64,000 nucleotides of DNA from a virus (lineage: Duplodnaviria > Heunggongvirae > Uroviricota > Caudoviricetes): IMG/VR virus record IMGVR_UViG_3300024268_000012; one strand, written 5' to 3'. The translations under genes were made by a program, and so were the position numbers. The notes beneath the pieces are model-generated. The model searched no databases. It saw only the letters and a list, made by a program, of their open reading frames with translations, and was not told where the DNA came from. Numbering within the stretch: position 1 is the first letter of the stretch; the number at the start of each line of letters is the position of its first letter. Positions 347 to 54,681 of the stretch are shown piece by piece.

Positions 347-1180
347 ATGACCCCCAAGATTATTGATGGCAAAGCAATTGCGGCAAGAGTTGAACAAGAG
401 TGTAAACACACTATCGAAGCATTCAACCTCCAGCCTAAACTTGTTGTAATTACTACCGACGAAGCTGACGCTGCCTCTAAAGTATACATGCGGAATAAGC
501 ATCGTGCAGCTGAACGTGTCGGTATCCTATATGAAGAAATTATTCTTAATAAATATGCGGACATGACAATTATGCTATCTACTATTCGTCAGCTTAACGC
601 TGATCCTACGGTACATGGCATTATCGTACAGCTGCCATTACCAGCTCGTTTCGATGTGCCGACTATTCAAGCTGAAATTGATCCTGATAAAGACGTTGAT
701 GGGTTCCATCCCGACTCAGCATTTGACCCTTGTACGCCCGATGCTGTGATGCATATGCTTCTGGATGACGAAAAAATGACTCTTGACGGAAAACACGCCG
801 TTGTCATTGGCCGTTCCAATATCGTTGGAAAACCTCTCGCTCGTCTCCTTCTCCAAGAGAATGCGACTGTTTCCGTCTGTCATTCTCATACTGATTCAAT
901 TTTACTTGAGCAGCTTTGCAAGAGCGCTGATTACGTGTTCTGCGCCGCAGGCGTCCCGGGGCTCGTGAGACCCGAAATGTTGGCGTACGGCACAGTGCTC
1001 GTCGACATTTCTATCAATAGAGATATTGAAGGAAAGTTGTGCGGCGATGCCCATCCGGATTGTTATCCACTATGTTCTGCATATACTCCCGTTCCTGGCG
1101 GTGTTGGACCACTTACCGTATCCCGTCTCATGTGGCACACCGTTACCTCTGCACTAATGGCAAGAAAGGATGAAACTTAA
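347..1180 (+). CDS. folD: Bifunctional 5,10-methylene-tetrahydrofolate dehydrogenase / methenyl-THF cyclohydrolase
   Basis: 277 aa. FolD hallmarks include the GKxAVVIGRSNIVGKP Rossmann motif and the C-terminal PVPGGVGPLT motif. RBS AAAGGAG precedes the start. Confidence 0.85.
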   Translation: MTPKIIDGKAIAARVEQECKHTIEAFNLQPKLVVITTDEADAASKVYMRNKHRAAERVGILYEEIILNKYADMTIMLSTIRQLNADPTVHGIIVQLPLPARFDVPTIQAEIDPDKDVDGFHPDSAFDPCTPDAVMHMLLDDEKMTLDGKHAVVIGRSNIVGKPLARLLLQENATVSVCHSHTDSILLEQLCKSADYVFCAAGVPGLVRPEMLAYGTVLVDISINRDIEGKLCGDAHPDCYPLCSAYTPVPGGVGPLTVSRLMWHTVTSALMARKDET

Positions 1181-2871
1181 TGGCAACCACTCGTACTGAA
1201 ACAGATATTAAACTGTATACAAACGAAGAGTTGCAAGATATTCAAGATAATTCACATTCTGGTTCAGCAACAGATTCAAAAGGTAATATTCAAGCAGTTC
1301 TTTCTGCGATTATTACCTACACTAAAGCTGCGGCTGAAGCTAATCGTAATTATGTAGATATTTTGTGGTCTTCTATTAAAACAGGTAATTATACCGATAA
1401 AATCCTTGGTTGGATTGAAATGAAACCCGAAAACTCATTGGATGAACACAAATATGGTATTGCAGACACCCGCTGGGCTGTCGATATTGGTGGTCGTATT
1501 ACTGAAAGCGGATGTAGATGGATTTTTGTGTATAACCGCGACTCTGAAGAACCTTGCGGAATTCGTATTTCTTGGTGGGAAGAAAATGAAGATGAGACTG
1601 ATCCAATTGAAGAAGCTTGGACCAACAATCCTTACATCATTCTTCCTAAGAATAAATATGCGTTTCCCACTGCTTCTGAAGTAAATACTATTATTGTACA
1701 ACCAAATGCAATGCAAGTTAATAAGGACTTTATTAACAATATTTTTAGCACAATCAATTATCATATTCAAAATGCTGCAAAAAATAGTAATAACAATGTT
1801 CGAATTCCTTGGGAGACATTTGGTAATTCTGCGGAAGTGCAAAAAATGTTTGTTGTTACATCAAGAGATATAACAATAGTAGAATCAGAAAGTCTATCTG
1901 CGCTCGGTGGTTGTTTTAGCTATGGAGAACGCTCTGATGGTCATTATCCAAGAGCAACAAATCGTGCATTTACCGTTGATGACTTTGATCCACTGGAGAT
2001 GGGCTTCTTTAATGATGCTACCTATTTGGAAGATAATTATACTGCCTTTGCACCTGCAACCAGTTTTACATTGTATCAAATTTTAACAGAAATTTTAGGA
2101 TATGGTGTAAGCTATTCTGCTAGTGTTGATCTTCAGAATGGTCAAGCTTTTTGTATGGGTCTGTTAATCACTTGGGATAAAGAAAATTCCTATGCAACAA
2201 ATACAAGCAATGCTAATTATCTTGCAAATGAAATTTTTGCTGATGAATCTCAGCAATATAGAGATTCTTTAACTTCAGTACTATCTTGGCCTGATGGTAC
2301 TGTACCAACTTTGGAACATTATATTGCAGCAAATAAAAAGAATAATACCTCTTGGCTAAAAACTTTTGTTGATTTAACAGTTAGTAAAATGAATACTGCT
2401 TTTGCTAAAGGAGATCGTGCAATTCATATTCTATGGTCAGAAGTCAGTTCTTCTTATGCCGATGAAGTAAAACGAGCTTGGCAAAATGGTTCATGTGAAT
2501 ATGACGGTTATATTGAAGCAGCTGTACCAAGAGGAAGAGATCTTGGAGTTGGAACTCAAACTTCTGTGGCTAGTGCTTTTAATCAAATTATGGACGCAGA
2601 ACATTATTCTGCTGGTTCTACCAATCCTCCAACTTATGCTTATGGATATATCCGCTATAAAAAAGATGGTGACACCAGTGGTGGAGGTAGTGCTAATTCT
2701 ACAGCCATTGAAGATATTACTCACCCTGATTCCATTGGCTTAGCTATTACCCTGTATGGATATGTAGCAAGTTCTCCACAATCTGGTAATACTGCTGATG
2801 CTCAAACTGCTGATGCTATTCGTGATATTCAGCGGATTTGGTTAGCAAAAGAGGCCCCTAAAGCAAAGTAA
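1180..2871 (+). CDS. Large hypothetical protein (563 aa), translationally coupled to folD through a TAATG overlap
   Basis: Long ORF rich in N/S/T/Y with no motifs I recognise. Confidence 0.6.
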   Translation: MATTRTETDIKLYTNEELQDIQDNSHSGSATDSKGNIQAVLSAIITYTKAAAEANRNYVDILWSSIKTGNYTDKILGWIEMKPENSLDEHKYGIADTRWAVDIGGRITESGCRWIFVYNRDSEEPCGIRISWWEENEDETDPIEEAWTNNPYIILPKNKYAFPTASEVNTIIVQPNAMQVNKDFINNIFSTINYHIQNAAKNSNNNVRIPWETFGNSAEVQKMFVVTSRDITIVESESLSALGGCFSYGERSDGHYPRATNRAFTVDDFDPLEMGFFNDATYLEDNYTAFAPATSFTLYQILTEILGYGVSYSASVDLQNGQAFCMGLLITWDKENSYATNTSNANYLANEIFADESQQYRDSLTSVLSWPDGTVPTLEHYIAANKKNNTSWLKTFVDLTVSKMNTAFAKGDRAIHILWSEVSSSYADEVKRAWQNGSCEYDGYIEAAVPRGRDLGVGTQTSVASAFNQIMDAEHYSAGSTNPPTYAYGYIRYKKDGDTSGGGSANSTAIEDITHPDSIGLAITLYGYVASSPQSGNTADAQTADAIRDIQRIWLAKEAPKAK

Positions 2872-2883
2872 GGAGGATCTTAA

Positions 2884-52678: not shown

Positions 52679-53051
52679 TGCTTTTGTTCATGCACTACAA
52701 ACATATGGAGAAAATTTGTTTGAATTGATTCCTGTGCATGGAAAATTGTTTGTTGATGAAAATACTCTATGCGGACATAGAGAAATTGTTCGTGCTCATT
52801 TAGATGATACATGGATCAAACCTATTATTCACCACTGGTTTGAAATTGAATCTCCACCACCTTTCGGCTATACCGATGAAATTTCAATGATTGCAAAATT
52901 ATCTGAAATTTATCCAGATAATGTTATTGTTGTAGTCGATAAATTGCGGGAATATTCTCGTTTAAATCGTGAATATGCCAACGATGAACTATATAATACA
53001 GAAGATCTTTGGAATTTAATTGAGGAGGCAAAAAAGAATAATGCTCACTGA
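52641..53051 (+). CDS. Hypothetical protein (136 aa)
   Basis: An ORF overlapping its neighbours; its start is uncertain. Confidence 0.4.
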   Translation: MPMQKPRIAFTANAFVHALQTYGENLFELIPVHGKLFVDENTLCGHREIVRAHLDDTWIKPIIHHWFEIESPPPFGYTDEISMIAKLSEIYPDNVIVVVDKLREYSRLNREYANDELYNTEDLWNLIEEAKKNNAH

Positions 53052-54681
53052 TATTGAAATCGCACAGAAATCAGAAATGTTACCTATTTCTGACATTATG
53101 TATCAACTGAATAAGTATAATTATGAGCCATATGGAAAATATAAGGCTAAATTGAAATATGATGATTTTGGCGACAAGAAAGGTAAGTTAATTCTTGTTA
53201 CTGCAATGAACCCTACCCCTATGGGTGAAGGTAAAACTACTATGAGCATTGGTCTTGCCGATGGTTTACGTCAAATTGGCGAAGATTCTATTCTTGCTCT
53301 ACGTGAGCCTTCTCTTGGCCCTGTGTTTGGTTTAAAAGGCGGTGCCGCCGGTGGTGGATACGCACAGGTCGTTCCCATGGAGGATATTAATCTACACTTC
53401 ACTGGTGACTTACATGCCATTGAAAATGCGAATAATCTACTCGCCGCAATGATTGATAATCATATTTATCAAGGTAATGCTCTCAATATTCAAAAAGTAA
53501 CTTGGCGTCGCTGCATGGATATGAATGATCGTCAGTTACGCAATATTACTTCTGGTCTTGGCGCAAAAACGGATGGTGTACCAAGAGATGATGGATTTGA
53601 TATCACTGTAGCTTCTGAAGTTATGGCCATCTTCTGTTTAGCTAACAATTTGGAAGAGTTAAAGCTCAGTCTGGGTGAAATTATTATTGGCTATAATGGC
53701 GATGGAATGCCTGTATATGCCAAAGAACTCAAGGCTGAAGGTGCTATGACAGCTTTGCTCAAGGATGCTTTTAATCCTAATATTGTACAGACTCTTGAGC
53801 ATACTCCCGCGATTATCCATGGTGGACCTTTTGCTAATATTGCGCACGGTTGTAATAGTATCGTAGCCACTAAATTAGCTATGAGTCTTGCAGATTATGT
53901 TGTAACTGAAGCTGGTTTTGGCGCAGATCTTGGTGCAGAAAAATTCCTTGATATTAAGTGCCCTCGTGCTGGAATCACACCTAATGCTATTGTAATTGTA
54001 GCCACTACCAAGGCTATTAAGTATAATGGCGGCATCCATAAGGATCATGTAAAAGAACCTAATATGGAAGCAATGCAAAAGGGAATTGTGAATCTTCAAC
54101 ATCATGTAAAGACAATGCAAAGCTATGGCGTTCCTGTTATTGTCGCAATTAATAAATATGATACTGATCTTGAAGAAGAATTGAATTATATTATTAAAAA
54201 TTGCGGTGCAGATTGTGCTATTTGTACTGCCCACGCAGAAGGTGGAAAGGGCGCGACGAACCTTGCTCATATGGTGCTTAATGCCTTGAAAGAGAATGTC
54301 ACTCTTAATCATCCTTATGATGTAACTTTTGATAATGGAAATATTTTCAAAAAGATGGAAGATTTGGCATATAAGTTCTATGGTGCTGGTAGTATTGTTT
54401 GGTCTTCAAAAGCAGCACTTGCAATGCGAGATTTTGAGCGACTTGGTTGCGGACATTACCCTATTTGTGTAGCTAAAACCCAGTATAGTATCAGTGATAA
54501 TGCCCAACTCTTGGGTGAACCAAAAGATTTTCCAATTGAAATTCGAGATTTAATTTTGTGTCATGGAGCAGGTTTTATTGTTGCCGTCTGCGGCAAGATT
54601 ATGCGCATGCCCGGTCTCCCGAAGATTCCGGCGGCAGAAAATATTGATGTTGTAAATGGTAAAATTGTTGGACTATTCTAA
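53041..54681 (+). CDS. fhs: Formate--tetrahydrofolate ligase (formyl-THF synthetase)
   Basis: The start is at MLTDIEIAQ. It has the PTPMGEGKTTMSIGLADGL FTHFS P-loop signature. 546 aa. Confidence 0.8.
   Translation: MLTDIEIAQKSEMLPISDIMYQLNKYNYEPYGKYKAKLKYDDFGDKKGKLILVTAMNPTPMGEGKTTMSIGLADGLRQIGEDSILALREPSLGPVFGLKGGAAGGGYAQVVPMEDINLHFTGDLHAIENANNLLAAMIDNHIYQGNALNIQKVTWRRCMDMNDRQLRNITSGLGAKTDGVPRDDGFDITVASEVMAIFCLANNLEELKLSLGEIIIGYNGDGMPVYAKELKAEGAMTALLKDAFNPNIVQTLEHTPAIIHGGPFANIAHGCNSIVATKLAMSLADYVVTEAGFGADLGAEKFLDIKCPRAGITPNAIVIVATTKAIKYNGGIHKDHVKEPNMEAMQKGIVNLQHHVKTMQSYGVPVIVAINKYDTDLEEELNYIIKNCGADCAICTAHAEGGKGATNLAHMVLNALKENVTLNHPYDVTFDNGNIFKKMEDLAYKFYGAGSIVWSSKAALAMRDFERLGCGHYPICVAKTQYSISDNAQLLGEPKDFPIEIRDLILCHGAGFIVAVCGKIMRMPGLPKIPAAENIDVVNGKIVGLF

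Follow-up and report, generated by a model that had tools for sequence, protein, structure and literature searches.

One-carbon genes in a 174-kb phage and a possible formate-fuelled, oxygen-free route to DNA precursors

The DNA considered here is a stretch of 64 kb (the window) from the IMG/VR record IMGVR_UViG_3300024268_000012, a virus of the Caudoviricetes. With its flanks, approximately 105 kb of a phage genome of approximately 174 kb was examined in total. Four genes within the window are our main subject: folD, fhs, and metK, which encode enzymes of folate-dependent one-carbon metabolism and S-adenosylmethionine (SAM) synthesis, and a gene for a short channel protein of the formate/nitrite transporter (FNT) family, here called mini-FNT. 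A fifth gene, for a 332-amino-acid (aa) protein with a ThyX-like fold (p332), begins at the downstream end of the window. Together with the anaerobic ribonucleotide reductase (RNR) genes nrdD and nrdG found in relatives, these genes may form a programme that makes DNA precursors from formate without oxygen.

One-Carbon Genes and Their Transcription Units

Positions of the genes and of the elements associated with them are summarized in Table 1. The FolD protein matches two Pfam domains above their gathering scores (PF02882, E = 1.3e-47; PF00763, E = 1.5e-30), is approximately 40% identical to FolD proteins of solved structure, and contains the catalytic YxxxK motif, DVDGFHP, the NAD(P)-binding GxSxxxGxP, and PVPGGVGP. 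Its best NCBIfam equivalog score, 247.7 bits, lies below the cut-offs of 333–559, so it is a divergent member of the family; orthologs in relatives are 55% identical to it. The folD stop codon overlaps the start of the next open reading frame (ORF; 1180–2871), to which no function could be assigned. IMG/VR FolD matches at the exact ends of prophage predictions in isolate genomes, which are probably host flanks, were left out of the comparisons.

Table 1. Genes, RNAs, and regulatory elements in the window (nt, nucleotides; THF, tetrahydrofolate)
Feature	Position	Strand	Remarks
Promoter, TTGAC-N17-TGATACAAT type	292..320	+	27 nt upstream of folD; regex scan
folD, bifunctional methylene-THF dehydrogenase/methenyl-THF cyclohydrolase, 277 aa	347..1180	+	Pfam, motifs, PHROG 7320
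mini-FNT, FNT-family channel, 197 aa	10673..11266	-	PF01226, E = 2.2e-24
Promoter, common class	11304..11332	-	38 nt upstream of mini-FNT start
tRNA, anticodon CUA, 91 nt	26718..26808	+	likely TAG-to-Gln suppressor
Near-consensus promoter, TTGACT-17-TATAAT, TG extension	33132..33160	+	heads RNA/tRNA-Val/metK unit
Structured non-coding stretch, 501 nt	33168..33668	+	fold z = -4.7 versus shuffled controls
tRNA-Val(UAC), last of tRNA array	33669..33744	+	ends 55 nt before metK start codon
Terminator-like hairpin (33750-33773, ten pairs) and T run	33750..33783	+	between tRNA-Val and metK ribosome-binding site
metK, SAM synthetase, 352 aa	33800..34858	+	PHROG 1569
Terminator-like hairpin	35124..35167	+	closes metK unit
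Promoter, common class	52145..52173	+	ahead of u155-u136-fhs operon
Two ORFs, 155 and 136 aa (u155, u136)	52211..53051	+	upstream of fhs; second overlaps fhs start
fhs, formate-THF ligase, 546 aa	53041..54681	+	
GIY-YIG protein, 319 aa	62686..63645	+	reads through TAGs including 63424 and 63493; opens replication/nucleotide block; ortholog called 319 aa in L461
103-aa ORF travelling with p332 gene	63655..63966	+	PHROG 1828, function not assigned there
p332, cryptic ThyX-fold protein, 332 aa	63970..64000	+	first 10 codons in window; runs approximately 970 nt past it (L009:3234-4232)

The fhs ORF opens with a TTG at 53020, and the ATG at 53041 agrees with the starts of homologs. Fhs matches its profiles over the full length (PF01268, E = 1.6e-238, 792.9 bits; NF010030, 815.8 bits versus a cut-off of 652), and its P-loop (PTPMGEGKTT) is intact. 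The protein is 56–60% identical to its nearest phage and Clostridia homologs alike and stands on a branch of its own. Recent capture from a host was considered and rejected, because the nearest cellular Fhs shares just 60% identity with it, as much as the phage copies do. The two ORFs that precede fhs have no Pfam or PHROG match. MetK, whose ATG is preceded by GGAGG, comprises three MetK domains, passes TIGR01034 (379.9 bits; cut-off, 309.4), and carries the GHPDK, GAGDQG, and GGGAFSGKD signatures.

These results bear out the initial annotation, which had named the three enzymes and left the homology to be confirmed by profile searches: all three match their families far beyond chance. The route that it drew from formate to 10-formyl-THF and on to 5,10-methylene-THF is also sound.

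The mini-FNT gene, which had not been remarked on, is the sole clear minus-strand gene within a plus-strand block, and gene calls on public contigs agree with it. Its product scores 86.6 bits against PF01226 (gathering score, 34.6) and fails the NCBIfam equivalogs, with 45.5 bits for FocA (cut-off, 290) and 31.6 bits for NirC, both far below cut-off. The AlphaFold2 model (predicted local distance difference test score [pLDDT], 94; predicted template modelling score, 0.90) matches NirC, HSC, and FocA with Foldseek template modelling scores of 0.80–0.86. Mini-FNT shares with these channels the fold, with its breaks in helices 2 and 5, and the conserved Thr and His of the pore (LYTG, T54; GFNHCIAD, H154), which are invariant across the mini-FNT family. 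It differs in length, the known channels having 250–280 aa, and in lacking their N-terminal helix and C-terminal tail; the alignment begins at approximately residue 22 of NirC and stops before the C-terminus. All mini-FNT homologs are of 177–230 aa, many are encoded on contigs of 144–191 kb, and they form a clade of their own on 130–190-kb phage contigs.

The mini-FNT region is flanked by genes for two paralogous large proteins (8373–10064 and 12430–13908; 24% identical) with Cys-rich C-terminal halves, both kept in a syntenic relative. Directly after two tRNA genes comes the gene for another membrane transporter, assigned to the DASS family of sodium-coupled anion symporters (17034–18380; 118 bits, below cut-off).

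The metK gene lies in a tRNA array, and the tRNA-Val placed upstream of it in the initial annotation is indeed directly upstream. The 480-nt structured metK leader described there stood in part. The gap before tRNA-Val measures 538 nt, with a promoter at its head, and the strength of this promoter together with the fold z score of the 501-nt stretch (Table 1) points to a structured transcript. This transcript contains a long hairpin of high GC content and a stretch rich in pyrimidines, and it may be a novel phage RNA. It does not appear to be a leader of metK, however, since tRNA-Val and a terminator-like hairpin intervene. A riboswitch upstream of metK was also rejected: no Rfam family matched at the gathering score in the whole window or at E ≤ 1 in the interval 33000–33900. 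Sequence conservation of the 501-nt RNA was not found in any fetched locus; the promoter alone recurs. In the syntenic relative, the metK ortholog (50% identical) is likewise located in a tRNA array, 20 nt after a tRNA-Leu, so the conserved feature is the location of metK within a tRNA array. Expression of metK is probably by read-through from the tRNA transcript.

This location raises the possibility that the genes support translation, with 10-formyl-THF used to formylate initiator Met-tRNA, and SAM and methylene-THF used to modify the at least 33 phage tRNAs (for example through SAM-dependent methylations or folate-dependent m5U54 formation, as in Bacillota). The occurrence of metK right after a tRNA, both here and in the relative, suggests co-transcription and would suit such a role, as would the three tRNA-Met(CAU) genes and the RNA-repair and tRNA-related genes (YqeY) nearby. 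We nevertheless consider translation support very unlikely, because folD, fhs, and the channel gene all lie outside the tRNA array, the window and flanks yielded no gene for Fmt, deformylase, or a tRNA methyltransferase, and Fmt is encoded near Fhs in none of 74 viral loci.

The link to SAM supply, which the initial annotation had also proposed, is not closed by phage genes. MetF, MetH, and MetE were not seen in the sequence examined, so MetK depends on host methionine.

As had been described, the genes are dispersed: folD, metK, and fhs belong to separate transcription units, each behind a promoter of one common class. This 29-nt element consists of TTGAy, an A/T-rich spacer with an A run, and then TGATATAAT; a regex scan found approximately 33 copies in the window (e.g., at 292–320, 6033–6061, 8318–8346, 19460–19488, 31870–31898, and 54737–54765), where it stands ahead of most transcription units, and it also recurs in relatives. 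The same class serves the tRNA, replication, RNA-repair, gyrase, and ligase genes as well as the folD, mini-FNT, metK, and fhs units.

Relatives, Gene Linkage, and the Thymidylate Slot

The syntenic relative is a 166-kb IMG/VR contig that shares with the window the order FolD, u279, u563b, u158, mini-FNT (on the opposite strand), u267, an M28-like protein, u492, u112, and, later, MetK, at amino acid identities of 32–55%. On another contig, of 168 kb, FolD is encoded 6 kb from mini-FNT. Preservation of gene order at this level of divergence indicates that FolD, mini-FNT, and MetK have been maintained and are not recent passengers. Their occurrence on IMG/VR contigs, among phage-type neighbours, and with orthologs kept at 32–55% identity marks these as auxiliary metabolic genes of phages.

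Sequence past the window was also compared with that of closer relatives. One contig (L460) is 90% identical at the nucleotide level to the downstream flank, and there PolIIIα, guanylate kinase, NrdD, and NrdG follow; two others (L461 and L462; approximately 81% identical) likewise encode NrdD and NrdG, along with dUTPase and RuvC. If the layout of L460 applies, nrdD-nrdG would lie approximately 18 kb past the window. The L460 NrdD scores 470 bits against TIGR02487 (cut-off, 326), and the reductase and its activase carry the motifs RRVTGY and CxxxCxxC. NrdD also has the finger loop TMGCR; a Met-Gly-Cys finger loop marks NrdD of the formate type. Among more distant relatives, NrdD is found at the equivalent relative position in 32 of 54 loci, and many of the others end before that position. 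L460 also carries, between the helicase and PolIIIα genes (L460:2090-2839), a gene resembling 3-deoxy-7-phosphoheptulonate synthase that is absent from this place in L461 and L462.

In another phage lineage, with contigs of 130–190 kb, the mini-FNT gene comes immediately after nrdG, whose end it overlaps, within a block encoding PolIIIα, p342, NrdD, NrdG, mini-FNT, a GIY-YIG protein, and dUTPase, in that order. Across NrdD-anchored phage loci, mini-FNT is present in 29 of 80, either abutting nrdG or within approximately 1 kb of it, and never without nrdG. By analogy with this linkage, and with the linkage to folD, formate is the predicted substrate of mini-FNT. One viral FNT report was found in the literature searched, in which a cyanophage FNT gene next to nirA was taken as a nitrite channel (PMC8115048); the partner gene there is nirA, whereas that of mini-FNT is nrdDG or folD.

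Viral fhs genes show a linkage of their own. FolD is encoded within 8 kb of Fhs in 16 of 74 viral Fhs loci, and ThyA or ThyX in 12, all of which also have FolD; PurN, GlyA, and MetK, like Fmt, are near Fhs in none of the 74. Thymidylate synthase is thus the only consumer linked to Fhs and FolD in other viral contigs. One IMG/VR phage contig (L005) has dCMP deaminase, ThyX, Fhs, and FolD clustered within 14 kb. Near that cluster is also an IS605 OrfB gene encoding a Cas12f-like TnpB (L005:58-765).

The likeness of p332 to the ThyX core was first seen by eye, and a fold search supported a ThyX fold. At least 8000 sequences belong to the p332 family, which has neither a Pfam domain nor a name; it corresponds to PHROG 6721 ("unknown function") and its members are "hypothetical" in the databases consulted. 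Searches against the PDB with phmmer and with a family profile returned nothing. Compared with ThyX, p332 has approximately 70 extra C-terminal residues and no match to the Thy1 profile.

In phages whose replication module is of the type seen here, we analysed the slot just upstream of HTH-YorF: it is occupied by the p332 family in 23 loci, by the ThyA family in 11 (7 of these with dihydrofolate reductase [DHFR] beside), by ThyX in 1, and by none of the three in 8. Canonical ThyA or ThyX was found nowhere in the 26 p332 loci, nor was DHFR in the slot in any of the 23 p332 cases. Such mutually exclusive occupancy is what displacement of one enzyme by another with an equal job should produce, and the lack of DHFR beside p332 fits ThyX-type chemistry, because this returns THF rather than dihydrofolate. 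This positional displacement of ThyA and ThyX makes p332 a candidate thymidylate (dTMP)-making enzyme.

The boost to nucleotide synthesis suggested in the initial annotation therefore gains support from context: the ThyX-fold gene in the slot; NrdDG, guanylate kinase, and dUTPase in close relatives; and the linkage of Fhs and FolD with ThyA or ThyX. That annotation had also pointed to thymidylate synthase, to genes of the 5-hydroxymethyl-deoxyuridine and -deoxycytidine pathways, and to methyltransferases as genes to be sought. The first has a possible counterpart in the ThyX-fold gene; no hydroxymethylase or methyltransferase was found in the approximately 105 kb. Probes for PurN, Fmt, GlyA, DHFR, Dam, C5 methyltransferase, and T4 gp42 (dCMP hydroxymethylase), which served as search baits only, had no match in either the window or its flanks. 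Like the methyltransferase probes, scans of the larger ORFs with Pfam gave no methyltransferase, and the suggestion that the pathway promotes methylation thus has no direct support.

Modification of DNA or RNA has nonetheless to be considered as the purpose of these genes. Methylene-THF would then be consumed by a pyrimidine hydroxymethylase or non-canonical C5 transferase and SAM by methyltransferases, and the modified bases, perhaps glycosylated by two GT8 enzymes, would evade host restriction. The product of p332 need not be dTMP, since the protein lacks the canonical ThyX motifs, and its structural matches include PolB, a ThyX relative with a different substrate. In two relatives, moreover, the ThyA-family gene in the slot scores equally against T4 dCMP hydroxymethylase and ThyA. 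Two GT8 glycosyltransferase genes are present, as initially annotated, one at 25910–26653 (a weak match to PF01501, E = 5e-6) and a paralog at 24335–25039 (35% identity, E = 5e-12). Both lie among the tRNA genes, however, far from those of DNA metabolism, and neither probes nor Pfam scans revealed the Dam-type or C5 methyltransferase or the dCMP hydroxymethylase that would be involved. Alternation in the slot with ThyX or with an ordinary ThyA and DHFR fits a common, ordinary product better, as does the proximity of Fhs and FolD to ordinary ThyA or ThyX in other viral contigs. Modification thus seems to us an improbable explanation.

For the p332 family as a whole, we offer a tentative and more doubtful than secure proposal: that it is a new lineage within the ThyX superfamily, one whose active site has been rebuilt, carried mostly by large phage contigs from anaerobic habitats, in which it replaces ThyX or ThyA and DHFR. 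Its members would produce either dTMP, through a variant mechanism, or else a base modification, and would be fed by environmental formate through mini-FNT, Fhs, and FolD.

A Putative Formate-Fed Programme

We estimate at roughly 55% the probability that FolD, Fhs, MetK, mini-FNT, the ThyX-fold protein, and NrdDG are parts of one formate-fuelled, oxygen-free programme for DNA precursors. Under anoxia, the phage would need deoxynucleoside triphosphates for many copies of a 174-kb genome. Formate released by host fermentation or by neighbouring cells would pass the membrane through mini-FNT. Fhs would attach it to THF at the expense of ATP, and FolD would convert the 10-formyl-THF to 5,10-methylene-THF, flux running in this direction. 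Methylene-THF would in turn serve to methylate deoxyuridylate (dUMP) to dTMP, by means of the ThyX-fold enzyme or a host enzyme. Fhs, FolD, and a ThyX-type enzyme would constitute a closed cycle that needs no DHFR, because ThyX-type chemistry regenerates THF.

In most of the class III RNRs studied, formate supplies both reducing equivalents, and NrdG cleaves SAM to generate the glycyl radical (PMC4493059). NrdD, the class III RNR, would take formate as reductant, and formate would thus serve twice. MetK would replenish SAM for NrdG and for other users of SAM.

A number of observations weigh against this scheme. NrdG uses SAM only to install the radical and not in each turnover, which makes it a weak reason for carrying MetK, and MetK is common in small Streptococcus prophages. 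The FNT fold is silent on substrate, NirC, HSC, and FocA matching mini-FNT equally well, and viral FNTs have been read elsewhere as nitrite channels (PMC8115048). In the lineage of this phage, mini-FNT does not adjoin nrdDG. The nrdDG genes themselves were seen in the 90%-identical strain and in more distant relatives rather than in this exact genome. Fhs was not found in the 166-kb syntenic relative (149268), even with patterns of its invariant motifs, so the full gene set is not ancestral. As for p332, its model is moderately confident (pLDDT, 76), neither Pfam (at E ≤ 0.1) nor NCBIfam detects it, its hhalign comparison with ThyX is not significant (probability, 0.8%), and it has DTYK in place of RHR and STSTMHK in place of SxRY; it may not make dTMP at all. 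Finally, the dispersal of the genes speaks against tight co-regulation as a single unit.

Several of the same observations could mean that the genes are unconnected acquisitions of host type, which give small metabolic boosts or counter host defence (for example, MetK restoring SAM) with no formate logic, mini-FNT carrying another anion such as nitrite, hydrosulfide, or lactate. The genes are spread over 54 kb in separate transcription units, the syntenic relative does without Fhs, many unrelated phages have MetK or FolD without the other, the fold of mini-FNT does not give its substrate, and the phage has another anion transporter, of the DASS family. Unconnected acquisition would, however, leave several patterns to chance: the common order of FolD, mini-FNT, and MetK at 32–55% identity, the placement of mini-FNT within the nrdDG operon at 29 of 80 loci, the joint recurrence of Fhs, FolD, and thymidylate synthase in viral contigs, and the single promoter class on all four genes. 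The 60% identity of the nearest cellular Fhs also argues against recent capture. We judge this explanation unlikely and prefer the formate-fed programme.

Genome Context, Known Systems, and Significance

The FolD protein is encoded verbatim on 38 public assembly blocks, on two contigs of 173,595 and 174,016 bp whose first bases fall at different places in the genome, and also on an IMG/VR viral contig. No near-identical phage was found in GenBank; a scan of JGI data and one of IMG/VR with the RecJ of this phage gave only relatives of at most 45% identity, and contig 3300028242_000881 proved to be a different phage. Proteins specific to the lineage match single genes only, in Enterococcus, Bacillus, and Lactococcus phages (large Bacillota phages). 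Coding in the window is nearly all on the plus strand, with positive GC skew and a G+C content of 38–50%. Past the window, the sequence continues with an SPbeta-type replication module (YorF, AAA_24, YorH, DnaB, a primase-like gene, a RecJ-like gene, and a helicase). The 10 kb gained upstream contained no relevant gene, and no virion structural gene was recognised in the approximately 105 kb read. The source is most likely a phage of approximately 174 kb from a gut or rumen setting, with a host among the anaerobic Clostridia. This host assignment draws on the scattered matches to Bacillota phages and on the GenBank records of the p332 family, 20 of 21 of which are in Clostridia phages (the other is in a Desulfovibrio phage).

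Comparison of coding sequences indicates that TAG is a sense codon for glutamine in this phage (genetic code 15). None of the 37 long plus-strand ORFs of the window ends in TAG, and the in-frame TAGs of NrdD genes in relatives, up to 5 per gene, align with glutamine. With TAG read as Gln, a ThiF-family protein at 28446–29201 (TAG at 28623) becomes full-length and scores 90 bits versus 48. The genes for FolD, Fhs, MetK, and mini-FNT contain no TAG codons. Correct gene calling in this phage requires genetic code 15.

ARAGORN identified 33 tRNAs in the window, and Rfam added 4 tRNA-like matches that ARAGORN does not call. Three of the latter are 115–126 nt long (14992–15117, 15124–15241, and 15536–15650), suggesting introns or long insertions; the fourth is at 31606–31670. 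Paralogous PD-(D/E)XK_5 nuclease genes (20942–21373 and 31022–31465) are interspersed with the tRNA genes.

Downstream of metK are genes for a DUF2828/DUF7788 protein (35934–37448), an 823-aa protein in which shoulder and repeat domains of the major vault protein are recognised (38026–40497), and a Band 7/flotillin protein (50215–51672); vault-like parts are unusual for a phage. An RNA-repair-type cluster (40790–50091) encodes an RlaP nucleotidyltransferase, three calcineurin-like phosphoesterases, an HNH endonuclease, a YqeY-like protein, an RNA ligase, an AAA_33 kinase, and DUF5662. Beyond the cluster is a second DUF5662 gene (56865–57494). In one IMG/VR contig of 402,311 bp (IMGVR_UViG_3300032167_000002), the RecJ-anchored replication block is present twice, 192 kb apart; this contig may be concatemeric, or may join two related phages through mis-assembly.

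Parts of the gene set are known from other phages. Lak megaphages carry both FolD and Fhs, uncultured huge phages of 595–635 kb have the same enzyme families, and FolD is annotated in 140-kb Enterococcus phages; these proteins are 35–46% identical to those described here, where the genes are far apart and accompanied by mini-FNT and a cryptic ThyX-fold gene. A published functional account of phage Fhs was not found in the literature searched. Streptococcus "Javan" prophages and the Faecalibacterium phage FP_Brigit encode full-length MetK with all signature motifs (47–55% identical), whereas metK in this 174-kb phage is part of a large tRNA array, behind a tRNA and a hairpin. No established role of MetK in any phage was found in the same literature. 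FolD and MetK already have PHROG families, and both occur in GenBank phage records, a number of which annotate them as such.

Like the precursor gene sets of T4-type phages (nrdDG, td, frd, dUTPase, and dCMP deaminase), the set described here, as completed from close relatives, would place anaerobic RNR, thymidylate synthesis, and dUTPase beside replication genes. It differs in adding a formate-type channel, Fhs, FolD, and MetK, and in having a ThyX-fold protein in place of ThyA and DHFR. Each of phage FolD, Fhs, and MetK is thus already known; the link between mini-FNT and NrdDG and the displacement by a ThyX-fold protein appear to be undescribed. Neither a short FNT clade within nrdDG operons of phages nor replacement of thymidylate synthase by a ThyX-fold family was found described in the literature searched, which did not cover subscription journals.

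Phage genes for DNA precursors are well known, and the present set extends further upstream. Formate, a major fermentation product of gut and rumen, would here be both carbon and electron source for phage DNA synthesis in anoxic environments. Mini-FNT in phage nrdDG operons would be the first sign of phages managing the reductant supply of class III RNR, and the protein could be a compact model of FNT gating. ThyX-type enzymes are drug targets, and an active p332 would mean that many phage genomes in which thymidylate synthase is now counted as missing have to be re-annotated.

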